Shown: positions 1 through 29,500 of the stretch, one piece after another
Layout: every line of letters starts with the position of its first letter
How positions within the stretch are numbered: the first letter of the stretch is position 1
Assembly: GCA_947628215.1 (NCBI GenBank)
Contig: CANQYZ010000009.1
Coordinates: 2,463-34,462 of the forward strand
DNA from: an uncultured Clostridia bacterium
GTDB lineage: Bacteria > Bacillota > Clostridia > TANB77 > CAG-508
Reading direction: 5' to 3'
Length of the DNA: 32,000 bases
Translations under genes and position numbers: made by a program
The notes under the pieces: model-generated
What the model saw: only the letters and a program-made list of their open reading frames with translations
What the model was told of the DNA's origin: nothing
The model's database searches: none

Positions 1-1
1 C

Positions 2-1067
2 AGAGAAAAATACAAAAATGGTAATATGGTTGTATTTGGAACAAGTGGAGCTGGTAAATCATTTTTTATAAAGCTGCAAATTCTTAGATATAGACTGATG
101 GGAATAGAGCAATACGTTATAGATCCAGAAAGAGAATATGAGAAAATTTGTAAAAACTTAAATGGAGTAATTTTTAAAATTGGTCCATCTTCAGATACTT
201 ATATAAATGTTTTAGATATAAGAGAAGAGTCAATTGAGGAGTCAAAAGGATATTTATCAAATAAAATTCAAAGATTAATTGGATTTTTTAATTTAATTTT
301 CAATAATTTAAACGAAGAAGATAGAGCAATATTAGAAGAAAGTATAATAGAATGCTATAAAAGAAAAAACATTACTTTTGACGATGAATCATTATATAAA
401 AGAAAAAATAAAAAAAGAATGTTTAAAGAAAGCATTGATATGCCCATCTTAGAAGATTTGTATAACGTACTTTTAGAAAAAGAAGCTACAAAAATATTAG
501 CATTAAAATTAAAACCATTTATTAGTGGTTCATTAAAATACTTTAATAATCATACAAATATTGAAATTAATAATAAACTTATAATTGCAGATATTTATGA
601 ACTTCGGAGAAGAAAATATTAAATATGGGATGTATATATTTACAGAATTATTTTGGGATAAGATAAAAAAAGATAGAAATAAAGAAAAAGCTATTTATTT
701 AGATGAAATATGGAGGTTAATTGGTGTTACATCAAATAAAGAAGTCGCATCTTTTATTTATAAGATATTTAAAACAATTAGAAAATATGGAGGAACCGGA
801 ATTGCCATTACACAAGATGTTTCAGATCTATTTGGACTTGATAATGGAACATATGGAAAAAGTATATTAAATAATTCTAGTATTAAAGTATTTTTCTCTT
901 TAGAAGAAGAAAATATAAATATATTAAGCAAAAATACTAATTTATCTGAAAAAGAGAAAGTCGAAATTAAATCACTAAGAAAGGGGGAGTGCATGGTATT
1001 CATAGATAAAGAGCATTTATTACTAAAAGTAGAAAGCTCAGAATATGAAAAAAATATTATAATATGA
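2..1067 (+). pseudogene. VirB4/TrsE-family conjugative T4SS ATPase, C-terminal ~350 codons. It runs in from the left window edge and is interrupted by a +1 frameshift.
   Basis: The frame is open from nt 2 (REKYKNGNMVVFGTSGAGKSF, Walker A). A Walker B-like AIYLDEIW lies in the second ORF. ORFs 26..622 and 585..1067 overlap in different frames. They join as ...ADIYEL|GEENIKYGMYIFTELFWDKI... if one nt is skipped at CGG 605-607. Confidence 0.75.
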
Positions 1068-2146
1068 TGATAAGTATTATAACTGCATTGTTAAATGAAA
1101 ATATAAATTACAAATTAAGAAAAATTAATAATTTATTTATAAAATATGATGATATTCAATATGAAGATGGAATATTTGAGATATTATATAGTGAAAAAAA
1201 TATAGACTATATTATTTTAAATAATAAAATAATAGAAAATGGTAATATTGAAAACACTATAAAAAAAATAATAAAAATAAACAATAATATAAAATTCATT
1301 ATCATTGATGAAGAAAATGCTAATATTATAGAAAAAAGTAAATATAAAAATATTATAGAGATAATATTTTTAAATGATAATGAAAGCGAAGAAATTCTAT
1401 TAAATAAAATAATAGAAATAATAAAAAAAGAAGAAAATATTAATTTAAATAATATATATATAAATACTAAAAAACATAAAGAAAATGAAGAAGAAATAAA
1501 TGATGAGAGTAAAGGAAAAACAATTATATTTATTGGAGTAGAAGGTGCTGGAAAAACATTGATATCTGCAATTATGGCAGATAAATTAAGCAAAGATAAA
1601 AAAGTATTGCTAATAGATATGAATTTTTATAACAATGATTTTAAATTATTATTTAAAATAAATAATAATACTACTAATAATAATGAAGAAGTGCTTAAAA
1701 TAAAGAAAAATTTAGATTTAATAACCGATATGAAATATAAAATTAAATATAAAAAAGATTTATTTAATAAAAAAATAAATAGATATAAAAATATCTATGA
1801 TTTTATAATAATTGATTTAAAAGGAAATAGAGAGGAATTATTCTTAAAACAATTTTTAGAAAAAAATGATGATCTTATTTTATTAATAGAACCGAATCTA
1901 ATAAATATAAAAAGAACTAGAAATAAATATAGAAAAATAATAAATAAAAATAAAAAAATTAAAATAATTATAAATAAAACTAATAAATATTCTATAAATA
2001 AAAAAATAATAAAGAAATTAATATGTTCTAATATTATTGGAGAAATTAAATATAATGATTTATTTGAAAAATTAATAAATAATTGTATAAATAAAAAAAA
2101 TTATTCAAAAATAAAAGATTTAGAAAAAATAATAAAAGAAATTTAA
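1064..2146 (+). CDS. ParA/MinD-superfamily P-loop ATPase with an N-terminal receiver-like region (CpaE/TadZ-like architecture)
   Basis: Carries a deviant Walker A (IGVEGAGKT) followed by KVLLIDMN, and a hydrophobic-Asp Walker B-like DFIIIDL. ATGA start/stop overlap with the VirB4-like ORF at 1064-1067 suggests translational coupling. Composition is extremely N/K/I-rich. Confidence 0.6.
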   Translation: MMISIITALLNENINYKLRKINNLFIKYDDIQYEDGIFEILYSEKNIDYIILNNKIIENGNIENTIKKIIKINNNIKFIIIDEENANIIEKSKYKNIIEIIFLNDNESEEILLNKIIEIIKKEENINLNNIYINTKKHKENEEEINDESKGKTIIFIGVEGAGKTLISAIMADKLSKDKKVLLIDMNFYNNDFKLLFKINNNTTNNNEEVLKIKKNLDLITDMKYKIKYKKDLFNKKINRYKNIYDFIIIDLKGNREELFLKQFLEKNDDLILLIEPNLINIKRTRNKYRKIINKNKKIKIIINKTNKYSINKKIIKKLICSNIIGEIKYNDLFEKLINNCINKKNYSKIKDLEKIIKEI

Positions 2147-4803
2147 AAAAATTAAATATTACAAAAACAAACTATAAAAAATTAAATTTAAAAATATATT
2201 TAATTAGCAAAAATAAAAATTTAATAATAAAACTTTAAAAAAATATATTTTATAAAAAAAGAAATTTATAAATTTATAAATAAAAAGAAAAAATTTTTTA
2301 TTTACAAAAATATAAAATATTTAATTTTATATCATAAAAATTTTTTTAAACAAAAAAATAAAAATTAATTTAAATTAAAAAAAGAAGATTTTTTTAAAAC
2401 AAGTAATTTTAAAAAAGAAAAATATTAACTCAATTTTTTTATTTTAATTCAAATTATAAGAAATCCAAAATAAATCTAATAAAATTTAAAGTCTAAAAAA
2501 GCAGGGAAATAAGCTTATTAGAGATTAAGATCTAAAAATTAAAAATTTAAAATAATTAATTAAAAATTATAGAAGTATAATTTTTAATAAAAAAAGCAAT
2601 ATGAAAATTAATGAAATTTTTATTTATGAGATTAAAAAATAGACAATAAAAAATGAAGATAATTAAAGATTAAAAATATTTTAAATTAAAAATAAAAAAT
2701 TAGGACAAAGTTTATTTTATTAAAATAATTTATTTTTATTAAAATTAAAAAAATTTAATTTAATAAATTTATTTAATTAAAATTTTATTTTTTTAAAAGA
2801 TTAATTAAGAAATTAATAAAATTATAAATATTACAATAAATAAAAAATAAAATAATAAAAAATAAAATAATAAAAGATAATTAAAAAAATTAAAATAATA
2901 ATTAAAATAAAAATAAATAATAATAAAAAATTAAAAAAATAATTAATTAATAATATATTTTAGTATAAATAAAATGAATATTGTTTATGAACAATTTAAT
3001 TATTTTGATTAATGTTAGATAATTTAAAAGATAAATGACTAGTTATGAGATATTATATAAAACAATAAATATATGAAAATAAATAAAAAATTAATATATA
3101 TCTCTTAAAATTATTAAAATAGTAAAAATATAGTTTATTACAAAATAAAATTAATATAATTTAATTTTTTCATTAAAAAAATTAAATAAGAAATGTCAAA
3201 AAAATTATTTTAAAAAATAAATTAATTTAAATTTTATATTTATAGAAATTAATTAATAAAAAATTAAATTTACAAAAATATATAATTTTCAAAATTTAAT
3301 TAAATAATTTTTTTCGAGTCTAAAAAAATTATTTTCAAAGTTAGAAATATTAATTAATAATTTTAATTATTTTTTGTTTTAAAATAAAAAAATAAATACC
3401 ATAAATTTAAAAAATCTTAAAATTAGGATTTAATTTTAAAATATAATAGCTAAAATTTAAAATCTAAAAACGCAGGGAAATAAGCGTGTTATAGCTTAAG
3501 GAAAAAAAATAGAATTTTTAAGATTATTTGATGAAAATGTTTAAATTATAAATTTTAATAAAAAAAGCAATATTTAAATTAATTAAATTATTATTTTTTT
3601 AATTAAAAATAATAGACAATAAAAAATAAATAAAATTAAAAAAATCATGATGATAAAAATAAGAATAAGAAAATAGGACAAAATTTATTTAATTAAAATA
3701 TTAGATCTTTAAAATTAATTTTTAAAATTAAATTAAATAATTAATTAAAATAAAATTAATTAAATTTATAAAATTTTTTAAAATTTATAAATATTACAAT
3801 AAATAAAAATAATAAAAAATAATTAATAATTAAATTAAATAAATAATATTAATTATAAAAAAATAAAAATAAAAATTAATAGTAGTATTTGAAAGTAAAA
3901 ATGTTATTAATAATATATTTTTTTATAAGAAAAGAAATATTATTAGAAAATAATTAAACTAATCTAATAAATATTAGATTACTTGAAAGATAAATAACCT
4001 AATTAAGAATTCTTATTTATAAATATAAGAAAATAAATATAAAAATAAATAAGTATTTTTTTAAAATATAAAAATTAAATAATAAAGTTATGATTTATTA
4101 CAAATAAAAATTAGTTTATTTAAAATTTTTTAAATAAAAAAATTAAATAAAAAAAGTCAAATAAAATTTTAATTCAAAAAATAAAAAAATTTTAATCAAA
4201 GATTTTTTAAAATTAATTAATAAAAATTATTTTAATTAATTAAATTTTAAATTTACAAAAATATAAAATTTTAAATTTTTAATTTGTAAAAATTTTTTAT
4301 AAGAAAAATTTCAAAATAAAAAATCTGATTTTATTTTTTCAAAAATAAAAAAATAAATGACGTCAATTTAAAAAAAGATAAAATTTTTTCTATCTAAGAA
4401 CAAAACATCCAAAATTTAAAAACAAAAAAAGAAAGGGAAAGTGGCATATTAGAGAATTTATATTAGAATAACTTTTTTAAAGCCTTTGGAGATGGAAAAT
4501 TAAATTTTATTAAATTTGATTTTAAAAGCAATATTTATTGTGAGATAAAAAACAGACAATAAAAATTAAAATAAATTAATTGTTTAATTTTTTAAAATTT
4601 AAAATAAAAAAAGAAAGACAAATTTTATTAATTAAAAATAATATTTTTTTCTATAAAATGAAAAAATTATTTTCAATAAAATAATTTAATAAAAAAATTA
4701 AAAAAATTTTTAAATATTACAAAAAATAAAAAATAATAAAAAATAAAAATAAATAATTAAAAATAAATAATTAATTATTTATTAATAAAAATAGGAGAGA
4801 AAA
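2147..4803. repeat. ORF-free ultra-AT-rich tract made of ~2.7 tandem degenerate units of ~0.92-0.98 kb (units approx 2147-3125, 3126-4085, 4086-4803)
   Basis: No ORF >=60 aa on either strand. G/C-containing islands recur in the same order and spacing in each unit (see finding). There are G/C-free runs of 86 nt (2877-2962) and 84 nt (3798-3881). Confidence 0.85.
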
Positions 4804-5490
4804 ATGAGTGAACTAGAAATAAATAATGATTTAAATAAAAACGAATTTTTAAATTCTACAATGGGTAAGATGATAAATAAAGCTGTAGATTTAGCAATAA
4901 GAACTGCACTACCAGATTTAATAGATGACCAGGTTATTAATATTAAAGATGCTATTTTGGTAGGAGGTTTTCAAGAAGGAGTAAAAGAATTAATTAATTC
5001 TGGAAATAATTTAAAAGAAAGTGTTAAAGGAATAATAACAGGTGAATTTAGTAGCTTAGAACAGATGAAACTTGCAGTAAAAGATGGCGGGATTTTAGAT
5101 TTCGTTTCTTTTTGTGTTGATAAGGGGATAAATTATATAAGTAAAAAATCTGGAATAGATAATAGTGTATTAAAAATTATTACTACAACTAAAAACTCAA
5201 TTATAAATCAAGTAAGCAAAGATATAGAGAATAAATATACTTCTCAAATAGAAAATATTGAGAAAATGGATAAATATAGTAAAGAGTGGAAAGAAGCCTT
5301 TGATAATAAGGATATTGAAGCAATGGAGAAAAGCAATAAAAAAATAATTAATCAGAGAAAAAATATAATAAATATTGAAAACATTATTGGAAAAGCAAAT
5401 ACAATAAAAAATATAACTGAAATTGTATCTAATTCTAAAGATTTTAAATTAAGTAATGAAGAATTAGAGTTAGCAAATAAGATTTATTAA
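4804..5490 (+). CDS. Hypothetical protein, 228 aa, no signal peptide, K/N/E-rich probably coiled C-terminal half
   Basis: ATG is preceded by GGAGAG (4794-4799) at good spacing. The ORF is clean with ordinary amino-acid composition. I recognise no family motif. Confidence 0.65.
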   Translation: MSELEINNDLNKNEFLNSTMGKMINKAVDLAIRTALPDLIDDQVINIKDAILVGGFQEGVKELINSGNNLKESVKGIITGEFSSLEQMKLAVKDGGILDFVSFCVDKGINYISKKSGIDNSVLKIITTTKNSIINQVSKDIENKYTSQIENIEKMDKYSKEWKEAFDNKDIEAMEKSNKKIINQRKNIINIENIIGKANTIKNITEIVSNSKDFKLSNEELELANKIY

Positions 5491-5581
5491 ATTTATTAAA
5501 ATTAAATTAATTTTGAAAAATTTTTTAAAAAATAAATTAAATTTTTGGCTTATTTAAAGCAAAAAATGGGCTATAAAAAAC

Positions 5582-5610
5582 TTGCATATTTTCTTACGGT
5601 TTAGTATAAT
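5582..5610 (+). promoter_or_regulatory. Sigma-A type promoter for gyrA
   Basis: TTGCAT (5582-5587), 17-nt spacer, TATAAT (5605-5610), about 36 nt upstream of the gyrA ATG. Confidence 0.6.
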
Positions 5611-5646
5611 ACAAGAGAAAATGAAATAAAGAAAAGGGGTTTTGAA

Positions 5647-8091
5647 ATGGACAAGCAAGAAGAAAAAATTATAGTCAGAGACATTGAAGAAGAAATGAAA
5701 ACATCTTATATAGATTATGCTATGAGTGTTATTGTTTCTCGTGCTTTACCAGACGTTAGAGACGGACTAAAACCAGTACATAGAAGAATTTTATATGCTA
5801 TGTATGAAGATGGTATAACATCTGATAAGCCATACAGAAAGTGTGCTAATACTGTAGGTTCCGTTTTAGGAAGATATCATCCTCATGGTGACTCTTCCGT
5901 ATATGATGCTATGGTAAGACTAGCTCAAGACTTTTCTATGAGATATATGTTAATTGACGGACATGGTAACTTCGGTTCTATTGATGGTGATGGAGCAGCC
6001 GCAATGAGATACACAGAAGCAAGAATGGCAAAAATTGCTGAGCAAATGCTAGTAGATATAGAGAAAAATACAGTTGAATTTATGCCAAACTATGATGATA
6101 GACTTCAAGAGCCAACAGTATTACCTGCAAAAGTTCCTGCTCTTTTAATTAATGGTTCATCTGGTATTGCTGTAGGAATGGCAACAAATATACCACCTCA
6201 TAACTTAAGTGAAGTAGTAGATGGTGCAATAAAAATCATAGATGAAGATAATGTAACAGACGAAGATTTAATGCAAGTTGTAAAAGGACCAGATTTCCCA
6301 ACAGAAGGTATAATTTTAGGAAGAGAAGGAATAAAAGAAGCTTATACAACAGGAAAAGGAAAAATCACAGTAAGAGCAGAAGCTGAGATTGAGGAGATGA
6401 GTGGAAATAAGAGAAGAATTGTAGTATCTTCACTTCCATATCAAGTAAATAAAGCAAAATTAATAGAAAATATTGCTACTCTTACAAGGGATAAGAGATT
6501 AGAAGGTATATCTGATATAAGAGATGAATCTGATAGAGAGCATAAAGTAAGAATAGTAATAGAATTAAAAAGAGATGCTAATCCTCAAGTTGTATTAAAT
6601 CAATTATATAAAAATACACAAATGCAAGATACATTTGGTGTAATAATGCTTGCTTTAGTAAATGGAGAACCTAAAATATTAACATTAAAACAATGTTTGC
6701 AATATTACATAGATCACAGAAAAGATGTTATTTTACGTAGAACAAAATTTGAGCTTGATAAAGCTGAGGCTAGAGCTCATATATTAGAAGGATTAAAAAT
6801 AGCAATAGACAACATAGACGAGGTAATTAAAATAATTAGAGAAGCATATGATGATGCTAAAGAGCAATTAATGCAAAGATTTGGACTTTCAGAAATTCAA
6901 GCTCAGGCAATTCTTGATATGCAATTAAAACGTCTATCAGGTTTACAAAGAGAAAAACTAGAAGAAGAATATAATGAATTAATGGCTCTTATAAAGAGAT
7001 TAAAAGAAATTTTAGCTAGTGAAACTTTAGTATATGGAATAATCAAAGATGAATTATTAGAAATGAAAGAAAAATTCGGAGATGAAAGAAAAACTAAGAT
7101 AGTAGCTGCTGAAGGTGAAATAGATGTAGAAGATTTAATTAAAGAAGAGCAAACTATAATAGCATTAACAAACTTTGGATATATTAAGAGAGCTCCAGTA
7201 GATACTTACAAAAGCCAAAAAAGAGGTGGAAAAGGAATTACTGGAATGGCAACAAAAGAAGAAGATTTTGTTAAAGAAATCTTTACAGCCTCAACACATG
7301 ATACAATTCTATTCTTTACTAATAAAGGAAAGATGTATAGACTAAGAGGTTATGAAATACCAGAAGCTGGAAGAACAGCTAAAGGAACTGCTATAGTTAA
7401 TTTATTAAGTCTTGATGCAGATGAAAAAGTTTCAACAATTATTCCTATTCAAAACTTTGCAGATGGAAAATATCTATTATTTGCAACAAAGAACGGATTA
7501 ATTAAAAAGACATCATTAAAAGAATATGATTCAAGTAGAAAAACAGGTCTTCAAGCTATTACATTAAAAGATGAAGATGAATTAATAGATGTAAAACTTA
7601 CAGATGGTGAAGATAATGTAGTACTTGTTACTAGAAATGGTATGAGTATAACATTTGATGAAAAAGATGTAAGAGCTATGGGAAGAGTATCACAAGGTGT
7701 TCTTGGAATTAGAGTAGATAAAGATGATGCAGTAATTGGTATGGAATCTGTAATTGGAGGAGCAAAAGCAACACTTCTTGCTATTACTGAAAATGGATTT
7801 GGTAAGAGAACAGAACTTGATGAATATAGAGTTCAAATAAGAGGTGGAAAAGGAGTAATAACATATAAAGTTACTGCTAAAACAGGAAAAATAGTTGGAA
7901 TCAAAATTGTTACAGAAAATGATGATGTAATGATGATTACAGATACAGGAACAGTTATAAGACTTGAAGTAAAAGATATAAGTGTACTTGGAAGATCTAC
8001 TCAAGGTGTTACATTAATGAGAACAAATGAAGGAAGAGTAGTAAGTATTGAAAAAATACAAGAAGACTATAAAGACATGATGAATGATTAA
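5647..8091 (+). CDS. gyrA: DNA gyrase subunit A
   Basis: 814 aa. The N-terminus has the catalytic-Tyr motif [11 protein letters not shown] and the [17 protein letters not shown] GyrA-box-like QKRGGKG in the C-terminal beta-pinwheel argues for GyrA rather than ParC. SD AAAGGGG lies upstream. Confidence 0.97.
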
Positions 8092-8107
8092 AAATTAAAT
8101 CAAATAT

Positions 8108-8141
8108 AAAAACGGGATATTTAGAAATATCCCGTTTTTAT
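8108..8141. terminator. Bidirectional rho-independent terminator between convergent gyrA and the dnaI-like gene
   Basis: Stem acgggatat (8112-8120) / atatcccgt (8127-8135), flanked by an A-run on the left and a T-run on the right. Confidence 0.75.
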
Positions 8142-8162
8142 ATTAATAATTATTATAAATTA

Positions 8163-9173
8163 TTATTTATTTTTCTTAAATCTAATATCATCACCAAAAA
8201 ACTTATAAATATTATAATGTCCTACAAGTCTAGATCCAATTCTCTCATTATATATAGAAAATATACTTTTCAAATCTAAATTAGTAGAAATAATAGTTTT
8301 AGTAATTTTTTGATTTTGATTTAAAAGCCTTGTATTAATAATAGTAAATAGTTCAGTAAATTTCATACTGTTCATAGTTTCAGTTCCTAAATCATCTATT
8401 ATTAATAAATCAACATTTAACAAATTATCAATAAAGTTTGAATCTTGTTTGTCAAATCTTGATGAAATTATAGATTCTAACATTACAGGAGCAGTCTGAT
8501 AAAGAACAGTTTTTCCTTTATCTAAAAGTGCTTTAGCTATACAATTAGAAAGAAATGTTTTTCCAAGTCCAGTAGGACCTAAAAACATAAGGTTTTTTTC
8601 ATTTGGATCATCAAAATTTTCAACAAATTTAATAGAATCATTATAAATTTTCTTTATATTTTCTCTTGGTGATATATCATAAGAATATAACTCTTTATTT
8701 GGAATGTCAGAATAAACATTAAAATTAAATGTATCAAAATTTTCTTTATCAATGTTTCCAATATTAGACTTATTATATTGGATATTAAGCAATTTTTGTT
8801 TTATGCAATTACAAAGTACAGTCCTTGAATTTTCATCCGTTATATACCCAGTATCTTTGCAAATTTGACATTCAAATGTAGGTTCTAAATCTTCTGATTC
8901 GATACCATGTTCTTTTAATACATTAAACTTACTTAATTTTAAATTATTAGACTCTTCTTCTAAGTTTTTTAAATATAATTCTTTTTCTGTTTTAGAAGAA
9001 ATAAGCATTGATTTTAGTGTACTTATAGAAATATCATGAAGTTTATCATCTATATTTTGAAGCTCAGGGATAGAGCTATATACTTGCTTTCTTTTAATAT
9101 CTGCATCAGAAATAGCTTTAGTTCTCTTAGAGTCATATTCAGTTAATAATTTTTTTAGTAAAAAATTATCCAT
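8163..9173 (-). CDS. dnaI: Replicative helicase loader, DnaI/DnaC (IstB-like AAA+) family
   Basis: Walker A GPTGLGKTF, Walker B LLIIDDLGTE, and an N-terminal Cys cluster CQICKDTGY...LCNC. I prefer the ATG at 9173 (MDNFLLKK), which has AAAGGG 9 nt upstream, over the track's TTG at 9191. Confidence 0.85.
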   Translation of the reverse strand: MDNFLLKKLLTEYDSKRTKAISDADIKRKQVYSSIPELQNIDDKLHDISISTLKSMLISSKTEKELYLKNLEEESNNLKLSKFNVLKEHGIESEDLEPTFECQICKDTGYITDENSRTVLCNCIKQKLLNIQYNKSNIGNIDKENFDTFNFNVYSDIPNKELYSYDISPRENIKKIYNDSIKFVENFDDPNEKNLMFLGPTGLGKTFLSNCIAKALLDKGKTVLYQTAPVMLESIISSRFDKQDSNFIDNLLNVDLLIIDDLGTETMNSMKFTELFTIINTRLLNQNQKITKTIISTNLDLKSIFSIYNERIGSRLVGHYNIYKFFGDDIRFKKNK

Positions 9174-9206
9174 TAAGTAAATCCCTTTCAATATATTAAG
9201 TCTTTA

Positions 9207-10172
9207 TTAATTTGCAAATAGATTATCTAAATTATCATAATTTCTTTGAGTTGAACTATTATTATTGTAATTTGTTTTCTTTTCTAATTCTTTTATTTCT
9301 TGAGTTTTCTTTTTCCTTGATTCTAAAAAGTTCTGAATTTCTACTGGAGTTTTAAGATTTCTATCATGCCAATCAGAAATAGTCTTATCAAAATAATCAA
9401 AACTTATATTTGCTTTTGAAGTACTTCTTTTAAGAGCAAGCTCAATTATATCAATTGAATATCCAAAATCTATAACCCATTTTTCAAGATATGCATCTTC
9501 ATAAGTAGTAAGATTACGATTTAATCCTAATTTTTTAATAATTTGCTTCTTAATTAGAGAAATTTTTTCTTGTTTTTGATAGTAACTATCTAAATCAGAA
9601 AAAGATCTAATTTTATTTTTATACCAGCTATCCGCTACAACTTGCAAGTAATTTCTATGAAGAGCTTGTCTGTCATAGCAATAATTAAATAATGCAAGCA
9701 TTACTTGTTCATCAAAACCATATTTTTTAAACCATAAATCAATATCATTGTACCAAGATGGTGACATAAGGCCTTGAAAGAATTGATTATTTATATTTTC
9801 AATAGCCTTTATTCTATATTGATTTTTCTCACTTTTTTCTATATCTTCAGGAGAAGAAGTTAATTTAGGAGAATATAATTTTAAAAGTTCAGTTTCTTGG
9901 ATATTAGATAGAATATATCCAGTAGTTTTCTTTACTAAAACTCCACATTCTTCCCAGTATTTGAAAGCTTCTTGAATAGTTTTTAAAGGTAGTGCAAGTT
10001 TTTTTGATAAATCGTTAATTTTTATATCTTTATCATATTTTGATAAAAATAATAAATACAAATATACCTTAACAAAATCGCCATTTGCTTGAGATAAATA
10101 TTCTGTAAAAAATACATCCGGAATTTCTGTTGATGAAAATAGCATTGATTTATCATTTTGTTCTAATTTCAT
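9207..10172 (-). CDS. DnaD-domain replication initiation / helicase-loading protein (DnaB/DnaD-like)
   Basis: The N-terminal winged-helix-like region (FVKVYLYLLFLS...LSKKLALPLKTIQEAFKYWEECGVL) and a C-terminal DnaD-like repeat are typical of this family. It sits immediately upstream of the loader ATPase, as in Firmicute dnaB-dnaI operons. SD is AAAGGGG. Confidence 0.7.
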   Translation of the reverse strand: MKLEQNDKSMLFSSTEIPDVFFTEYLSQANGDFVKVYLYLLFLSKYDKDIKINDLSKKLALPLKTIQEAFKYWEECGVLVKKTTGYILSNIQETELLKLYSPKLTSSPEDIEKSEKNQYRIKAIENINNQFFQGLMSPSWYNDIDLWFKKYGFDEQVMLALFNYCYDRQALHRNYLQVVADSWYKNKIRSFSDLDSYYQKQEKISLIKKQIIKKLGLNRNLTTYEDAYLEKWVIDFGYSIDIIELALKRSTSKANISFDYFDKTISDWHDRNLKTPVEIQNFLESRKKKTQEIKELEKKTNYNNNSSTQRNYDNLDNLFAN

Positions 10173-10210
10173 ACTACTACCCCTTTTAAAAAAATTTAAG
10201 CTTTTCCAGA

Positions 10211-10239
10211 ATTATATCACCATAATCTAAGATTTACAA
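10211..10239 (-). promoter_or_regulatory. Sigma-A promoter with extended -10 for the DnaD-like/dnaI operon
   Basis: On the minus strand: TTGTAA (10239-10234), 17 nt, TGaTATAAT (-10 hexamer at 10216-10211). Confidence 0.5.
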
Positions 10240-10246
10240 CAAAAAA

Positions 10247-10534
10247 TCATATTGATTTCTTTTGATATAGATATACTTTAGGGGAAAGAATATATTTTAT
10301 AAGTACAAGGATTATTATGAATATATTTTCTTTATCAGTACGTAAAATGGTAAATAAAAGAAATGGTAAGAAAAGTATTATAAACATACATATTCGAAGA
10401 TAGATTCGATTAAAAAGAAAGTTTATTATACCAAATAAAATAGCAGCATATAAAAGATTAATAAAAATAGTAGAATAATCAATTATACCAAGAAACTTGT
10501 ATGAAAAATTATAATTTTTAGGAAAAATAAATAT
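10247..10534 (-). pseudogene. PrgI/VirB3-like small membrane protein. This 95-codon open frame is missing from the ORF track because it has no ATG/GTG/TTG start.
   Basis: A strong SD AGAGGTGA (10548-10541) is followed 6 nt later by ATA (10534-10532). The frame then reads (I)FIFPKNYNFSYKFLGIIDYSTIFINLLYAAILFGIINFL...: a PK-x-aromatic N-terminus plus two hydrophobic helices, typical of VirB3/PrgI/TcpE-like proteins. It lies directly downstream of the VirB6-like gene. Confidence 0.45.
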
Positions 10535-10553
10535 TTTAAATCACCTCTTAAAA

Positions 10554-11429
10554 TTAATTAAATATATTTTTTATACTAGAGATTCCAGAAGATATGTCAG
10601 TCGTAAATCCACTAGTAAAATCTTTAACAAAGGAAGTTGCTTTAATTAGAGCATATAAACTTCCAATATATAATATTTTAATTGTAGCATCGCTAAATGA
10701 ATACTTAAGAGAAATAATTATTACAAGTAATAGTGATACTATTATTTGTATACTTAAAAGCATTAGAAAATTTTTAAGCCACATTTTAAATAGCCATTTC
10801 GTAGAGTTTAATGAAAAAGCAAGTATGAAAAACGGAGATAGAAGAATTAAAACTTTAATTAATATATATCTATAAGAATAGGTAAATAGTAAATTAAAAA
10901 AGCCAAAAGTAATAAATAAGTTTAAAATACCGTCAAAGGAAAAAAAGGTTGTATTTACCATATTCTCTCTTAAGAAAACTTTATTTAACTGATCTGCAAG
11001 ATATGTAAAAGAAATATCTGAAGAAAAAATGAAAAATCCAAATTCACGCAAACAATCAGTTATAATATCAAATATATTTACAATTTGTTCACAAATAAAG
11101 TAAGAACTATTCACACATATTGCACAAACTGTGAATTTAACTAGAAATTGCATAGGATTTTCGACGGAATTTCCAGACAAATGTGAAAAAAGATATGATA
11201 GACCATAATAAATTAAAAATGCTATAAGCATTGCATTTACAATATAGATAATACTCTGAGTTTTATCTGTTAAAAAAGAAGAAAAATAATCATTTCCTAG
11301 AATTTTTGTGTCTATAAAAGTAATATCATCTAATATAGAAAAAGAATCTCCATTAAAAGAATTTACTAAACTATTATAGAGAGAATTTATTGATGATGAT
11401 ATAGTTTCATTTAAAGTACTTAAATCCAT
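10554..11429 (-). CDS. VirB6/TrbL-like polytopic T4SS membrane protein
   Basis: 291 aa with about 6 hydrophobic helices. Its position between VirB2-like and VirB3-like ORFs fits the assignment. Only 3 nt separate it from the upstream gene. Confidence 0.5.
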   Translation of the reverse strand: MDLSTLNETISSSINSLYNSLVNSFNGDSFSILDDITFIDTKILGNDYFSSFLTDKTQSIIYIVNAMLIAFLIYYGLSYLFSHLSGNSVENPMQFLVKFTVCAICVNSSYFICEQIVNIFDIITDCLREFGFFIFSSDISFTYLADQLNKVFLRENMVNTTFFSFDGILNLFITFGFFNLLFTYSYRYILIKVLILLSPFFILAFSLNSTKWLFKMWLKNFLMLLSIQIIVSLLLVIIISLKYSFSDATIKILYIGSLYALIKATSFVKDFTSGFTTDISSGISSIKNIFN

Positions 11430-11432
11430 ATT

Positions 11433-11765
11433 TTATCCAAGTAGTGCATTTATAGTAGATAAAATTAAATCTATGCATAAAATAAATGCATATGAAAATA
11501 ATGAACCTGTAATTAATCTTTTACCAGTTCTAATTTTTTCTTCATCACCAAAGCTAAATTTTTTCATAAGAATTCCACTTCCAACTGCTACAGCAGCTGC
11601 AGGAGTAGATATATTTATTATCCAAGATTCTATTTTTGTAAATGCAGAGTTTAAAGTTGTTATAAGTTTAGGATATGCACCAAGAGAAGTGTTTGGAGAT
11701 AAAATAAAAAGAAAAAGTATTATAAATAGTAAAATAAAAATTCGTAAAATTAATTTAAATTTCAT
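11433..11765 (-). CDS. TrbC/VirB2-like pilin-type small membrane protein
   Basis: 110 aa. A signal-peptide-like N-terminus (...SPNTSLGA) is followed by two hydrophobic helices separated by a short charged loop. SD is GAAAGGA. Confidence 0.45.
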   Translation of the reverse strand: MKFKLILRIFILLFIILFLFILSPNTSLGAYPKLITTLNSAFTKIESWIINISTPAAAVAVGSGILMKKFSFGDEEKIRTGKRLITGSLFSYAFILCIDLILSTINALLG

Positions 11766-11788
11766 AAATAAAAGTCCTTTCTATATTT

Positions 11789-13514
11789 TTATTTTTTAAA
11801 ATAAGGCAAAGTGAATATTTTTTTAGGAGAAATAATCTTAAAACCAGTAGATATAAAAGAAAGACAAGAAAAGGTTTCTAAATTTTGAGTAAAGAAATTA
11901 GTATCATAAATTAAATCTAGTTGTTTATATGTATTTATACTTTCAGAAATGTTTGAATCATGAGAAATAAAAGTATTTGTAAAACGATTATAAGATGTTT
12001 CTTTTGCATTTTCTGAGACTGTATTTGAAGTATAAGTTTTTTCTTTTTTTCCAATTTGCTTTTGAGCTTCTTCTATAGTAAAAATATCATCTGTTCTAAA
12101 CCAAAACTTATTTACTAAATTTTGAGTAATTACTTTAGTATCAGACTCACTTTTTAGGGTATTTAGTATAGATGTATAACTCTGAGTTGCAAGAATATTT
12201 ATACATTTGGCTTCTCTAGATTGAGCAAAAAAATTAGCATCAGAAGAGGTAACAAATTCATGATATTCATCACTTAAAAAACAAGAAATTCTAATATCAT
12301 CAGAAGATTTTTTAGAAAGAGTAGATAATACCTCAGATTGAAAATCTAATTTTAAATAAGCAGATATGATTTTTGCAAGAGATGAATATTCAGAAATGTT
12401 CATACTAAGTACGACAATTTTCCCTGATAAAAGTGTATTTGAAAATCATTTAAAATTAATTTCAGATTTGTTAGGACAAAATGTTTGCTGTACAGCAGAG
12501 TCAGATACAAAGACATTTGTAATTCTTGTAATTTCTGACTTTAGTATAGAAAGTACTCTAGAATCAAGAGAAAAAAACTCATTTTCAAAGAAATCAAGAA
12601 TACTAGATAGCTCTGAAATATGTGATTTTGAAAGTTTTCTTTTTAAAAATAAATCTTTTAAATAATTGATTTTTTCTTCGTAATATTTTCTATTAATTAT
12701 TAATTTATGAATTTCAGAAAACGTTACATATCCATTATTATAAAGTCTACAAAGTTTTATACATTCAGTAATAACTTGCTCAGCTTTATCAAGCCAATAA
12801 GGATCAGAATTTCCTGAATCTCCGAAATAGCTTTAAAATAGTAATTAATCTATTTGCAAGTATCTGAGGTTTTAGATTGGGTTTATCTAAAGGGTTATAT
12901 TTATATCTGCCACCAAGTTTTATAATGATTACATCATTTTGTCTATTAACACTTTTAGCACAAGACAGTACATGTTTATAATAATTTCCTTTAACATCAA
13001 GTATAAGCATTGCAAGCTTTTCATCTATATTGTTTGATTTATATGATATAAGTTGCTTAGTTACCGGGTATAAAAAAGAGCTAGTTTTACCACTTCCAAT
13101 AGTTCCAGTTACTAAAATATTTTGAAATAATCCTTTATATGGAATATAAACATTATTATCATTTTCATCTTTTCCTACTAAGATATTAAGTTTATCTTTG
13201 TTTAAAATAATATCATTTGCTAAATTAGTTATTACTTTTTCTTTATTTTCTTTATTAGAATTGTTATCCAGAAAATTAAAGAATTTCGAAGATAAATAAT
13301 AAAATATTATAAAAGATGAAGCTATAGAAGTAATAATATAAATTTTTTTAAATATATTCCAAAACACAGGAAACCTTATGCAGATATCAAAAGGATGTAC
13401 AGAAAATGTAAATATAAGTGACTTTGCAAATAAAATATCTTTAAATATAGTTATGATTAAAATATTAAATAACAGACATAAAATAAGAGTGAGTAATAAT
13501 TTCTTTTTAATGAT
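11789..13514 (-). pseudogene. VirD4/TraG-family type IV coupling protein, inactivated by a missing start codon, one +1 frameshift and one in-frame TGA
   Basis: Two N-terminal TM helices, Walker A GTIGSGKTSS and LILDVKGN. The middle segment, read in another frame, gives YFGDSGNSDPYWLDKAEQVI... The C-terminal part contains ...LLSGKIVVLSMNISEY... and FFAQSREAKCINILATQS. The frame break is at CGG 12824-12822 and the in-frame TGA is at 12448-12446. SD AGGAGGA (13528-13522) is followed 7 nt later by ATC (13514-13512) rather than ATG. Confidence 0.75.
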
Positions 13515-14032: not shown

Positions 14033-14109
14033 GTGTCTATAGCTCAGTAGGATAGAGCGCTCCCCTCCTAAGGGAGAGGCCACAGGTTCGATTCCTGTTA
14101 GGCACACCA
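14033..14109 (+). tRNA. tRNA-Arg, anticodon CCU (reads AGG), with encoded CCA
   Basis: Full cloverleaf traced by hand: acceptor gtgtcta/taggcac, D arm gctc/gagc, anticodon stem ctccc/gggag with loop cuCCUaa, T arm acagg-ttcgatt-cctgt, discriminator A, CCA. Confidence 0.95.
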
Positions 14110-15496: not shown

Positions 15497-15636
15497 TCGG
15501 TATAAATGATAGCTTTTGTGTGGAGAGTATGTTCAATAAAAAGCTATGAACCTCGTCAGATTCGGAAGAAAGCAGCGATAAATAGTGCATTTATGTGATA
15601 CATGCTTTCCACAGAGAAGCTAAAGTTTATACCATT
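15497..15636 (+). ncRNA. ffs: Signal recognition particle RNA, short (about 140 nt) form
   Basis: Conserved domain IV sequence GUCAGAUUCGGAAGAAAGCAGC (15555-15576) with a GGAA tetraloop. A long closing helix pairs ggtataaa (15499-15506) with tttatacc (15626-15633), agctt with aagct, and tgtggagag with ctttccaca, followed by a U-run. It occupies the classic Firmicute position between tadA and dnaX. Confidence 0.7.
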
Positions 15637-26576: not shown

Positions 26577-29500
26577 CTACATTAGTTTTTTCTTCTTATA
26601 TTCAATTAATATGATATTTGTTATTATAAGTATAAAGAATGGTAAGAAGAATACTATTAATACTTGAGCTTTTTCAAAATCTATACCAGTATATAATCCA
26701 ATAATTATTGTTGCTTCACTTTTATTATCGTCAAGTGTAACTTCTGGTGCATTTGATTCATTTTGTGTTTCTATTATCTCAGCTGTATTTACTTTTTCAC
26801 CAAAGTTTGCTTTTGATTTATCCCAGATTAATACTAAGAATAAATCTTGATAATCGCCGGGGTCTATAACTTCTGTTGTACATACTAGGTTGTCATTTTC
26901 ATCTTTAGTCCAATCAGAATTGTCACTAGATACTGAAAATCCTTTTGGCACAGTATCTTTTACTGTTACACTTCCTGGAATTAGACCAGTATTTGTTACC
27001 CTTAGACAATATACAACTTCAAGTTTTGAACTTTTAATAAGTTTTGATTTAATATCTACTTTAGTCATTTTCTCATCTGAAATCTTTTTATCACTATTAT
27101 TTACGCTTACACTTTGAATGGTTTTATCTAGTTTAAAGTTAAATGGCTTAGCTTCTGTAACAACTTCATTTGTATCTACACCATCAACTTTTGCAATATT
27201 GGTGATAGTAACAGTTTCTTGATCATCTTCTAAATGATTTACAGTAACTGTAAAGCTTAATACTGACTCTCCTGGAATTATACCATCTCTTGATGGTTTT
27301 CCTTCAGTAGAATCATCTGAAGAATCTTCTTTAGGATTTTCGGCAGGAGTATCAGATTCGCTATCAGAATTATTATCATCTGTTATTTCTCCTAGAAGAT
27401 CAGCCACCTCATTTTTATTTTCTGTTTCAGTATTATCTTTGCTTTCTGTTTCATTTTCTTTATTTGTTTCTTCAGTATCATTATCTGTTTCTGGTTTATT
27501 AGTTCCAGTTCCGCTTGTCTTAGTTTTTCCTTTAACTAATACTATAATACCATTTTTTAAATCTTCTTCTGTATACTTTTCATTTACTTCACCATTTATA
27601 GATATACTTCCTTCTACAAATGTAGTGCCTTCTGGTATATCGTCTTGTACTAAAACTTCTTTTTCAAGAGAACCATCGTTTTGAACAGTTATATCATAAG
27701 TAATAGTTTCATTTTCTGCTACATAGTCTTTACTATATTGAGTTTTAATACTCTTAAGTTCACTAATTACTGATTCTATATATACAAGAGATACTTCATT
27801 TGTGCTTACATCATCAACATATGCTGTATTTAAAATTGTATCTTCATCTGTCAAATCATTTACTGTAACATCAAATTTTAAAACTACAGTAGATTTTCCA
27901 GATGTAGATTCTTTCTTAGAAGGAATTAGAAGAGTAAGTCCTTTTTCTAATTCTTCTTTTGTATATTTAGTAGTTTCATCATTTACTTTTATACTACCTT
28001 CTACAAAAGTAGTTCCTTCTGGAATAGTATCTTTTACAACAACATTCTTTTCTAATGTACCACTGTTTTCTACTTTAATAGAATATGTAACTTTTTCATC
28101 CTTTACAACATAGTCATTATTAAACTCTGCTGAAACTTCTTTACTTTGACTAATAATTGGTTCTGAATAAATAGCTTTAACTTCATTAGTATCTGTTCCA
28201 TCAACATTTGCTTTATTTAAAATTTCTTTTTCATCATCTATATCATTTACTGTTACGTCAAATGAAAGACTTTGTTCAGAATGCTCTGGAATAAGTAAAT
28301 CTATACCAGATAATAATTCGTCTTTAGAATAAGATGAATTATCATCTTTTTTCAATTCTTCATTATTGTGTTTTATACTACCTTCTACGAAAGTAGTTCC
28401 TTCTGGAATAGTATCTTTTATAGGAACTATTTTTGAAATACTACCATCATTTTTTACTTTAATAGTATAAGTAATCTTTTCACCATTTACTACAAAGTCT
28501 TTTCCAAATTCAGTTTTAATTTCCTTAGAACTTGAAATGATAGGTTCATAATATACAGTTTTAACTTCATTAGTATCTATTCCATCAACATTTGCTTTAT
28601 TTATAATTTCATCTGTATCATTTATATCATTTGCAGTTACTTTAAAGCTTACAACAACTTTTGCTGCTCCTGATGAAGAAGTTTTTCTAGATGGGATTTT
28701 TACCTTTATACCATTTTTTAAATCTTCTTCAGAATAATCTTCACTTCCACCATCTACTTTTACACTACCTTCTACAAAAGTAGTTCCCTGAGGGACAGTA
28801 TCTTTTATAACAACAGTTTTTCCAAGAGTACCGGTATTTGTTACGACGATAGAGTAGGTTATTGTTTCATTAGTTATAACATAATCATGACTGTTTTCAG
28901 TGCTCATCTCTTTACTTTGACTGATAATTGGCTCTGAATATATTGTATCTACAGCATTTGTATCTTTTCCATCAACATTTGCTGTATTTGTTATTTTGGT
29001 TTCATCATCTAAATCATTAACTGTTACATCAAAAGTAAATTCTTTAGTAGTAAGAGCAGGGATTTCAGCTTGAAATCCTGTAGTTAAATCACTTTCTGTA
29101 ATAGCAGAACCATTTGTCTTTGATACAGCTTGACCATCAAGTTTTACACTATTTGGAACAAATGTTGTACCTTGTGGAATAGCATCTTTTATTACAACCG
29201 TTTTTCCTAAAGTACCATCATTTTTTACTGTGATTTTATAAGTAATCTTTTCACCATTTATAACATAATCTTCATCATGCTGAGTTGTCATACTTTTATT
29301 TTGACTAATAATTGGTTCTGAATATACAGTCTCTACTGTATTTGTATCTTTTCCGTCAACATTAGCTTTATTTGTAATTTTATCTTTATCAGTTATATCA
29401 TTTACTGTTACATCAAAAGTTATAGTTTGAGTAGAATTTTCTGGAATATTTATTGATAATCCGTTTGTTAAATCAGTAACAGTTGGTATTGATTTGTCAG

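Follow-up and report, generated by a model that had tools for sequence, protein, structure and literature searches.

The described systems closest to the element considered here include: (i) the repeated protein-binding sites in control regions for transfer or partition of plasmids and integrative and conjugative elements (ICEs), such as the omega-protein heptad arrays of pSM19035 and arrays of parC/parH type, which also serve as operators, (ii) the REP/BIME, BOX, RUP and Rickettsia palindromic elements, which are 30-300 bp long, usually palindromic or structured, and dispersed over the genome, and (iii) bacterial junk DNA (reviewed in 'Factors Behind Junk DNA in Bacteria', PMC3899985), which derives from degraded duplicates or pseudogenes in reduced, A+T-rich genomes and is exemplified by the roughly 25% of non-coding DNA in Rickettsia prowazekii (PMC4683814). 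These systems are compared here with a gene-free, A+T-rich tract at positions 2147-4803 of a 32,000-nt stretch of DNA (the window) from an uncultured Clostridia bacterium (GenBank assembly GCA_947628215.1, contig CANQYZ010000009.1, positions 2,463-34,462 of the forward strand). The tract lies between the gene of a ParA/MinD-family ATPase and a conserved open reading frame (ORF), ORF4804, inside a cluster that resembles a type IV secretion system (T4SS). With roughly even confidence, it is read here as the tandem triplication of a clade-specific, non-coding, cis-acting module (M) set in neutral A+T-rich filler.

The M array resembles each of these systems in part. Like the omega heptad and parC/parH arrays, M is non-coding, putatively cis-acting and A+T-rich, with repeated short boxes upstream of and co-oriented with genes derived from a mobile element and, as in partition arrays, the window array adjoins a ParA-family gene. 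By contrast, the boxes of M are 25-130 nt apart, neither contiguous nor helically phased, and the period is about 1 kb instead of 7-22 bp. None of the described operators, centromeres or nic sites that were testable matches the M motifs GCWGGGAAATAAG and AAATATTACAA. With the REP/BIME, BOX and RUP families, M shares non-coding units, conserved cores and several copies in one lineage, but the units are about 1 kb long, unstructured and strictly tandem. Similarly to Rickettsia-type junk, the bulk of the tract is at neutral composition, diverges at about the synonymous rate, carries an indel polymorphism and lies in a decaying cluster; however, the window units have no detectable parent gene and, unlike in plain junk, some of their short islands are conserved across species and positions.

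The tract is 8.47% G+C, compared to 24.9% for the whole window, and contains no ORF of at least 60 aa on either strand, the longest inside being 34 aa; no small ORF is conserved among the units. A first-pass annotation, made from the sequence alone, had described an ORF-free tract of very low G+C with two runs devoid of G/C (2877-2962 and 3798-3881) and a series of recurring G/C-containing islands. This description is borne out: both runs are exact, and every island coordinate checked agrees with the sequence. Three further G/C-free runs lie at 2711-2798, 3708-3796 and 4721-4793. The tract comprises three head-to-tail units (u1 to u3) of about 0.96 kb each, which are about 70% identical, and a repeat search finds families at spacings of 968-973 and 940-961 bp. 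Smith-Waterman alignment with a log-odds matrix derived from the base composition of the tract itself, in which A/T matches weigh little, gives scores of 140 (u1/u2), 76-83 (u2/u3) and 52 (u1/u3), compared to 17±2 (maximum 29) for global or 20-bp-window shuffles. Identity is 71.5% between 2480-3039 of u1 and 3451-3998 of u2, and 69% between 3065-3576 of u2 and 4019-4537 of u3, where composition alone would give 44% by chance. The periodicity of about 0.97 kb that had been claimed thus goes beyond low complexity. Simple lag autocorrelation of G/C matches is uninformative in this tract, with single lags no better than shuffles, because indels shift the register.

Island 6 (AAATATTACAA) provides natural unit boundaries, with copies at 2155, 2827, 3790 and 4713 (to within 1 bp). 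The first of these, a fourth copy at 2154-2164, is directly 3' of the ATPase stop codon; therefore, the intervals are 672, 963 and 923 bp. The count is thus of three complete island sets and an additional island 6, not the 2.7 or so units originally proposed. In a four-way alignment, the first interval lacks about 300 bp found in the other two. The structural reading first made also stands for the third unit, which passes without a break into the start of ORF4804, with its Shine-Dalgarno sequence and ATG. The array is laid out as follows:

2147-4803, + strand: gene-free A+T-rich tract, composed of three tandem units and a final 91 bp up to the ATG of ORF4804
2154-2826, + strand: Unit A, island 6 to island 6, 672 bp
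2827-3789, + strand: Unit B, island 6 to island 6, 963 bp
3790-4712, + strand: Unit C, 923 bp, with the island 6 copy closest to ORF4804 after it
4793-4797, + strand: Shine-Dalgarno sequence AGGAG of ORF4804, from direct sequence reading

Within each unit, module M spans about 300 nt and has a fixed order of island 2 (GCWGGGAAATAAG), RGWCAAW boxes and island 6 (AAATATTACAA). On the gene strand, island 2 reads AAAAAG-CWGGGAAAYAAG..ATTAGA and island 6 reads AAATATTACAAAA; between them are two or three heptad-like RGWCAAW boxes, which the first-pass annotation had listed as islands 4 and 5. Copy 2 fits the composite GGGAAAYAAR-N(281-311)-AATRTTACA, as do three strain contigs with the same sequence (L001-L003; related loci are cited by L number). 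Copy 3 has an orthologous counterpart in an 81%-identity species (L013). The elements of the three copies are:

2475-2862, + strand: module M copy 1, nhmmer profile match at E=3e-56, island 2-island 6 spacing of 323 nt
2481-2525, 2592 and 2826, + strand: islands 2, 3 and 6 of copy 1, with the island 2 core GCAGGGAAATAAGC at 2500-2513
2639 and 2702, + strand: boxes AGACAAT and GGACAAA of copy 1
3443-3826, + strand: module M copy 2, nhmmer match at E=5e-59, spacing of 315 nt
3452-3496, 3612, 3675 and 3789, + strand: island 2, the two boxes and island 6 of copy 2
4401-4755, + strand: module M copy 3, nhmmer match at E=6e-48, spacing of 278 nt, orthologous to 394-745 of L013
4411-4455, 4552, 4614 and 4712, + strand: degenerate island 2 (GAAAGGGAAAGTGGC), the two boxes and island 6 of copy 3
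4711-4746, no strand: 36-bp deletion in strain contig L002 that removes the island 6 nearest ORF4804, from a global alignment

The evidence that M is more than a local repeat comes from sister species, which carry another gene-free tract, between gyrB and a TraC-like gene. This gyrB-TraC tract is 3.3 kb long with 7% G+C in L008, L009, L010 and L015, and 2.9 kb long with 6% G+C in L338 and L339. The sister tracts are also tandem, with three M copies in both the L008 and the L338/L339 species, in the order and on the strand seen in the window; L005 has one degenerate copy, read by eye, between gyrB and the first T4SS-like gene. One sister tract is interrupted by a 100-N scaffold gap, which indicates that such tracts break assemblies. 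The sister-species tracts are:

L008, 3310-6641
L339, 419-3347
L338, 1-2603
L015, 1-1030

The distance between islands 2 and 6 is 262-323 nt in all 13 copies, with order and orientation fixed. Aligned with the L339 tract, the window scores 35.2, compared to 21.4±2.4 for shuffles (1 of 300 reaches the score), over 51 nt centred on island 2; with the L008 tract, the score is reached by 5 of 300 shuffles. The composite GGGAAAYAAR-N(250-311)-AATRTTACA occurs among 339 loci only in M-bearing lineages and always on the gene strand. M units are strictly tandem and restricted to two positions flanking one cluster, with none elsewhere in about 1.5 Mb of related loci. In Markov simulations, the probability that a tract of such composition contains GGGAAATAAG is 0.002-0.003 and about 1e-6 composite matches are expected. 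Neutral inheritance fares little better: while GyrA is 92% identical between the two clades, synonymous third positions are 0.63-0.69 identical, compared to 0.51 by chance, and ORF4804 is only 53-55% identical. At such near-chance synonymous identity, the neutral survival of a 10-mer with four G residues in most copies is improbable. Judged by these comparisons, neither chance nor neutral descent would explain the shared module.

The sister tracts also place M relative to genes. In every species, the last island 6 is about 80-200 nt upstream of the next gene and, in L005, L008 and L339, a canonical sigma-A-type promoter, TTGACA-17-TAnnAT (in the regions of about 6499-6540, 6418-6470 and 3267-3335, respectively; -10 element TAATAT or TAGTAT), is predicted between the last island 6 and the TraC-like gene. 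Thus, M corresponds to the upstream region of the cluster's first operon in these species. The configuration is that of a cis-regulatory element, being upstream and co-oriented, with short motifs kept across species and the surrounding DNA not. The first-pass suggestion of three paralogous promoter or binding units survives in this weaker form: two islands and the boxes are kept in order, spacing and orientation, but in the sister species they stand upstream of another gene of the cluster. About 30-40 nt before the promoter of the TraC-like gene is the word TGTCGAA (AGTCGAA in L008), which corresponds to the Spo0A-box consensus; this raises the possibility of a link between the cluster and the control of sporulation. 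Matches to consensus sequences of sigma-H, sigma-F, sigma-E, Spo0A, CtsR, PhoP and dif were also considered, but none fitted both sequence and spacing and no claim is made from them.

While the islands are conserved, the filler behaves as neutral DNA. The G+C content of the tract (8.5%) equals that of third-codon positions in neighbouring genes (8-16%), whereas spacers elsewhere between genes, with their promoters and RNA genes, have 17-31% G+C. The A>T skew of +0.21 is within the third-position range on this strand, irrespective of gene orientation. Identity between u3 and its L013 ortholog is 0.66, compared to 0.71 at synonymous third positions of ORF4804, and G/C sites overall are conserved below the prediction of a stationary model. 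The 36-bp loss in strain L002, which has three AATATTACA words where L001 and L003 have four, is part of the same neutral-like behaviour. Most of the tract thus looks like neutral DNA. Among the four copies of the window/L013 lineage, 13 G/C columns show no variation, compared to eight present in three copies and 16 in two, a distribution that a single retention rate does not fit; two runs of 12 nt are invariant across these four copies. As to whether the tract is neutral throughout, the filler is neutral-like, but both clades have kept islands 2 and 6 and the distance between them.

This neutral-like composition and divergence is what would be expected if the whole tract were junk, i.e., a duplicated segment of the gene junction, possibly ATPase fragments, that decayed and left islands as chance or mutational survivors. 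The strain deletion that removes an island fits this explanation, as does the state of the surrounding cluster. The VirB4-like gene (window 26-1067) is split into two overlapping ORFs, likewise in L008 and L338, and the coupling-protein gene (11789-13367), intact in relatives at 554-575 aa, is broken here: its N-terminal part is an ORF of 187 aa and its C-terminal part one of 204 aa, separated by 400 non-coding bp. The cluster is, on this evidence, degenerating in the window species and the label of 'T4SS remnants' given to it at first is therefore fair.

The position of the tract is specific to one lineage. With the ATPase gene and the ORF4804 homolog located by hidden Markov models (HMMs) in every fetched locus, the gap between them is at most 150 bp, often an overlap, in about 60 related loci; the two genes overlap in a 58%-identity species, are 1 bp apart in a 54%-identity species and have gaps of -26 to +10 bp in the sister clade (L005, L008, L015, L016). 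The tract is common only to the window and L013, a 1.6-kb contig that holds 783 bp of sequence, at 9.5% G+C, ahead of its ORF4804 homolog; this sequence aligns to unit 3. The window and L013 form one branch of a neighbour-joining tree. As the two genes abut in about 60 loci, the tract is placed as having arisen in the window/L013 lineage. Tandem copies in one orientation that the sister lineages lack at this junction are, in turn, the configuration of a decayed duplication.

Large gaps at the same junction recur in a distant clade (L070, 3483 bp; L059, 1750 bp; L045, 1486 bp; L084, 1441 bp; L083, 781 bp), and a 554-bp gap in L069 is a frameshifted ATPase C-terminus. Tandem repetition within the tract is seen in L070 (lag of 735 bp), L045 (833 bp) and L084 (729 bp), and the tracts of L070, L045 and L083 share sequence among themselves but not with the window. 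The origin of one tract is clear. In L084 (8425-9889), two tandem copies of about 730 bp, 87% identical, derive from the 3' half of the ATPase gene, the intact form of which precedes them, with the ORF4804 homolog on their other side. Stop codons interrupt them throughout, with a Walker-B remnant still visible (ILIDLSK compared to VIIDLLK). The copies score 35.8 bits against the ATPase by tblastn (shuffles, 23.9±2.5) and align collinearly with the last 0.7 kb or so of the gene at z=7.0 and 8.1, reached by none of 400 shuffles, with negative controls at z of at most 0.5. L084 can thus be viewed as a young example of how such tracts start. It is the sole positive, as the same tests are negative in L045, L070, L059 and L008. 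The ATPase gene is the most A+T-rich and lowest-complexity gene of the locus (9-24% G+C across loci), and the recurrence of tandem tracts identifies its junction with ORF4804 as a duplication hot spot where junk can arise.

Some observations on these relatives stand apart from the window tract. L045 (8458-9943), L070 (6479-9961) and L083 (9127-9907) hold a second, unrelated family of tandem units at the same junction, with a period of 730-830 bp and conserved G/C islands of its own (e.g., TAGGCGTTA...GAAGAAG...TAGTTTACATATA); a paralogous pair of minus-strand ORFs in the L045 units resembles antisense translation of A-rich DNA. In L058 (1-3600) and L093 (upstream of 4218), no ATPase gene is detectable 5' of the ORF4804 homolog despite 4-5 kb of flank, which is 6-13% G+C in L058; the upstream half of the cluster may have decayed in these two loci.

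By comparison with L084, no parent is found for the window units. They show no similarity to the ATPase gene in local, semi-global or forced-global DNA alignments in two registers, and none that is significant to ORF4804 with its downstream spacer or to the rest of the window on both strands. No protein signal is detected by tblastn with shuffle controls, family HMMs of four and 13 sequences find no match in six-frame translations of the units, and a G/C-favouring ancestral consensus of the units matches neither these HMMs nor Pfam. Decayed ATPase copies were thus rejected as the source in the window on every alignment, tblastn, HMM and consensus test, and decayed ORF4804 copies, with or without the downstream spacer, for want of any DNA or protein signal. 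Two matches caught by eye, AAGCCTTTG at 4480/5295 and a 31-nt match of 2126-2156 to 2864-2894, are not significant. The first-pass annotation had considered that intact genes at the homologous position in relatives would make the units decayed gene copies; no relative carries such a gene, although the L084 tract does consist of decayed copies of the ATPase 3' half. The absence of similarity to the ATPase, ORF4804 or other window DNA, the reappearance of islands 2 and 6 in the same order, spacing and strand at another position in sister species, far beyond chance, and a divergence from those species too large for neutral DNA to keep the islands make a tract of pure junk rather unlikely.

An assembly artefact, in which a low-complexity region is mis-joined or artificially expanded, would also yield an unusual tract, and the extreme composition and a contig coverage of only about 6x invite the suspicion. 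Three independent SPAdes metagenome contigs (L001-L003), however, span the full tract at 99.2-99.98% identity and differ from the window there by one single-nucleotide polymorphism and the 4711-4746 deletion of L002, nothing else. As the units are only about 70% alike, they are effectively unique sequence for an assembler and not collapsible repeats. Orthologous sequence is present in a second species (L013), and analogous arrays were assembled independently in L008, L009, L010, L015, L338 and L339. Mis-assembly is therefore very unlikely, to the point of being barely credible.

The location of the array next to a ParA-family gene and inside a T4SS-like cluster raises the prospect of a platform for DNA processing or segregation: an oriT-like site, a centromere-like site for the ParA-like ATPase and a partner, or an iteron-type origin of an ancestral element. 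The orientation specificity, A+T-richness, repeated co-oriented RGWCAAW boxes and strongly conserved short cores of M are in keeping with this prospect, as is the location of the sister-species array at the cluster edge. A replication origin, as first speculated, is not borne out: the tract has no DnaA boxes (TTATCCACA-like, at most one mismatch; six elsewhere in the window where about ten are expected) and no iterons of 17-22 bp, TRF finding only low-complexity A/T repeats there, while dnaA of relatives is about 8-10 kb upstream with a dnaA-dnaN spacer of its own. The centromere-like alternative fails similarly, as the tract has neither parS-like sites nor a contiguous array of short repeats and neither the scanned proteins of the cluster nor the precomputed Pfam calls of related loci include a ParB-like one. 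No relaxase turned up among these proteins and calls, nic-site families not having been searched systematically. There is no conserved inverted repeat or hairpin around the islands, the coupling-protein gene is broken in the window genome and the sister-species array is about 4 kb from the ParA-like gene. The further idea of a curved-DNA array finds no footing in the tract, as its A-tracts lack helical phasing (power at 10-11 bp of 0.099, compared to a null mean of 0.135 and 95th percentile of 0.231). CRISPR-type direct repeats of 24-48 bp with spacers are absent, the period being about 960 bp. Overall, with no tested feature in favour of an oriT-like or centromere-like role, a processing or segregation platform is distinctly unlikely. 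In the specific form in which M arrays are oriT- or centromere-like recruitment platforms for a domesticated conjugation-like machine (ParA-like ATPase, VirB4-like ATPase, coupling protein, VirB6-like and pilin-like proteins), with islands 2 and 6 and RGWCAAW as signals on origin-proximal DNA and three copies as a state maintained in at least two lineages, the proposal would be a long shot.

Three paralogous genes of small RNAs, or long leader RNAs, could in principle account for islands that are on one strand only and co-oriented with the downstream genes. The tract nevertheless has no Rfam match even at E<=5 and no terminator-like sites in a scan. The copies are predicted to fold differently, their folding energies show no consistent advantage over shuffles, and RNAalifold finds zero conserved pairs around island 2 on either strand. 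At about 9% G+C, a stable fold is hardly to be expected, and RNA genes, which the first-pass annotation had also entertained, are very improbable here.

In blastn of the tract against plasmids and phages, the only matches are compositional, at 65-70%, to other A+T-rich DNA (e.g., Stammera, a Mycoplasma phage and a C. perfringens plasmid). The exact 14-mer GCAGGGAAATAAGC has at least 240 matches in metagenome and viral contigs; all of the 240 examined are in DNA of at least 28% G+C and are therefore chance matches.

The preferred reading, a triplicated cis-acting module in neutral filler, can be framed as follows. M would belong to a chromosomal, conjugation-derived (T4SS-like) cluster and serve in sister species as the control region ahead of the first operon. 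We infer that the islands bind protein or act as promoters; they may be sequence-specific protein-binding sites and/or -35-like promoter elements that govern downstream cluster genes. In the window/L013 lineage, the M array is situated between the ATPase gene and ORF4804 and would now drive or regulate ORF4804, control falling on this gene because it lost its tight junction with the gene upstream. Unequal recombination or slippage in DNA of very low complexity may have amplified and copied M. Such events probably also left, as side effects, the period of about 1 kb, the triplication itself and the DNA outside the islands (roughly 85% of the bases), which has since drifted to the neutral G+C floor.

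Several findings weigh against this proposal. Nhmmer profiles of the whole module do not cross-detect between the two clades at E<=0.01 and therefore homology rests on the short islands and their spacing, the filler not being conserved. The composite test was assembled post hoc; by use of exact window words only, it avoids circularity, but the choice of islands is still post hoc. A sigma-70 pattern scan returns 48 sites in the tract compared to 45±6 in shuffles, which is uninformative at such composition. Of the three copies, the one nearest ORF4804 has the island 2 that is most degenerate, and one strain lacks its island 6. Both facts speak against a promoter or operator that is essential and set at a constant distance from ORF4804, and a strict promoter model leaves them unexplained. 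Finally, the decayed ATPase fragments of L084 demonstrate that tandem junk arises at this junction without function.

The genes beside the tract belong to a conserved cluster. The ATPase, aligned with 12 orthologs, matches Pfam CbiA at 28.8 bits, above the cut-off of 25.4, with weak matches to ParA, BcsQ and KGGVGR, in agreement with its early assignment as a ParA/MinD-type ATPase. The ORF4804 family has no match in Pfam or NCBIfam and, by homolog search, is confined to metagenome-assembled genomes of uncultured gut Clostridia, with relatives titled Clostridium sp. CAG:343, CAG:354, CAG:567 and Candidatus Scatovivens. Identities between ORF4804 and its L013 homolog are 0.88, 0.93 and 0.66 at the three codon positions, by which the gene is judged to be under purifying selection. 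The flanking features are:

1064-2146, + strand: ParA/MinD-family (CbiA) ATPase gene, 360 aa, 13.6% G+C, the upstream flank of the tract
4804-5490, + strand: ORF4804, 228 aa, conserved family in the T4SS-like cluster, 139 homologs
5582-5610, + strand: sigma-A-type promoter of gyrA, TTGCAT-17-TATAAT, from sequence reading

The gyrA promoter block AAAAAACTTGCATATTTTCTTA is identical in L013 and is an example of a constrained non-coding element in the same genome, in contrast to the tract 5' of ORF4804; a conserved promoter of its own suggests that gyrA may be independent of read-through. In relatives, the locus begins with dnaA-dnaN-recF-remA-gyrB, followed by a T4SS-like block (TraC-like N-terminal piece, CD1110-family VirB4-like ATPase, ParA/CbiA ATPase and ORF4804 homolog) and then by gyrA, DnaI-like, DnaD-like, VirB6-like, pilin-like and coupling-protein genes. 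The coupling protein is TraD/TrwB-like and the pilin-like protein of T4SS type (window 1-13400). In each of the 16 related loci for which gene tables were read, gyrB and gyrA bracket the conjugation-type set, with dnaA a few kb away. Loci concerned include L005, L008, L011, L338 and about 75 more, and the pair of ParA-like ATPase and ORF4804 homolog is found in about 70 of about 80 loci of a genome scan. The set looks like an anciently fixed, possibly domesticated ICE remnant and not a recent insertion. The cluster is distinct from the type IV pilus cluster described in a study of TANB77 pilins (PMC11680825).

Around the cluster, the window carries gyrA, DnaD/DnaI-like genes, dnaX-ybaB-recR and putative sporulation genes, the last assigned by reading translations without a family search, all in the standard genetic code. 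The host is an uncultured gut Clostridium, which these genes indicate to be probably of low G+C and spore-forming. The only Rfam/ARAGORN matches of the window are a tRNA-Arg(CCT) at 14033-14109 and a bacterial small signal recognition particle RNA at 15520-15615, both ordinary and upstream of dnaX. A 1536-aa predicted surface protein with a C-terminal membrane anchor is encoded at 26577-31187 on the minus strand and has about seven tandem repeats of about 95 aa with the motif ...TYTI.V.N.G....V.IKDTIP.GTTFV..S...

If the preferred reading holds, the near-pure A+T composition and kb-scale repeats of this tract would be mostly ordinary, as unconstrained DNA in a genome with a neutral G+C content of about 8-14%. 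Such tracts would then be flagged as hot spots of tandem amplification that break short-read assemblies and may be mistaken for origins or centromeres. A previously undescribed, clade-specific module (GCWGGGAAATAAG...RGWCAAW...AAATATTACAA) would mark the control region of a conjugation-derived cluster whose place between gyrB and gyrA is fixed across a large group of uncultured gut Clostridia, and M would provide a handle for finding the regulator or DNA-binding partner of this cluster.

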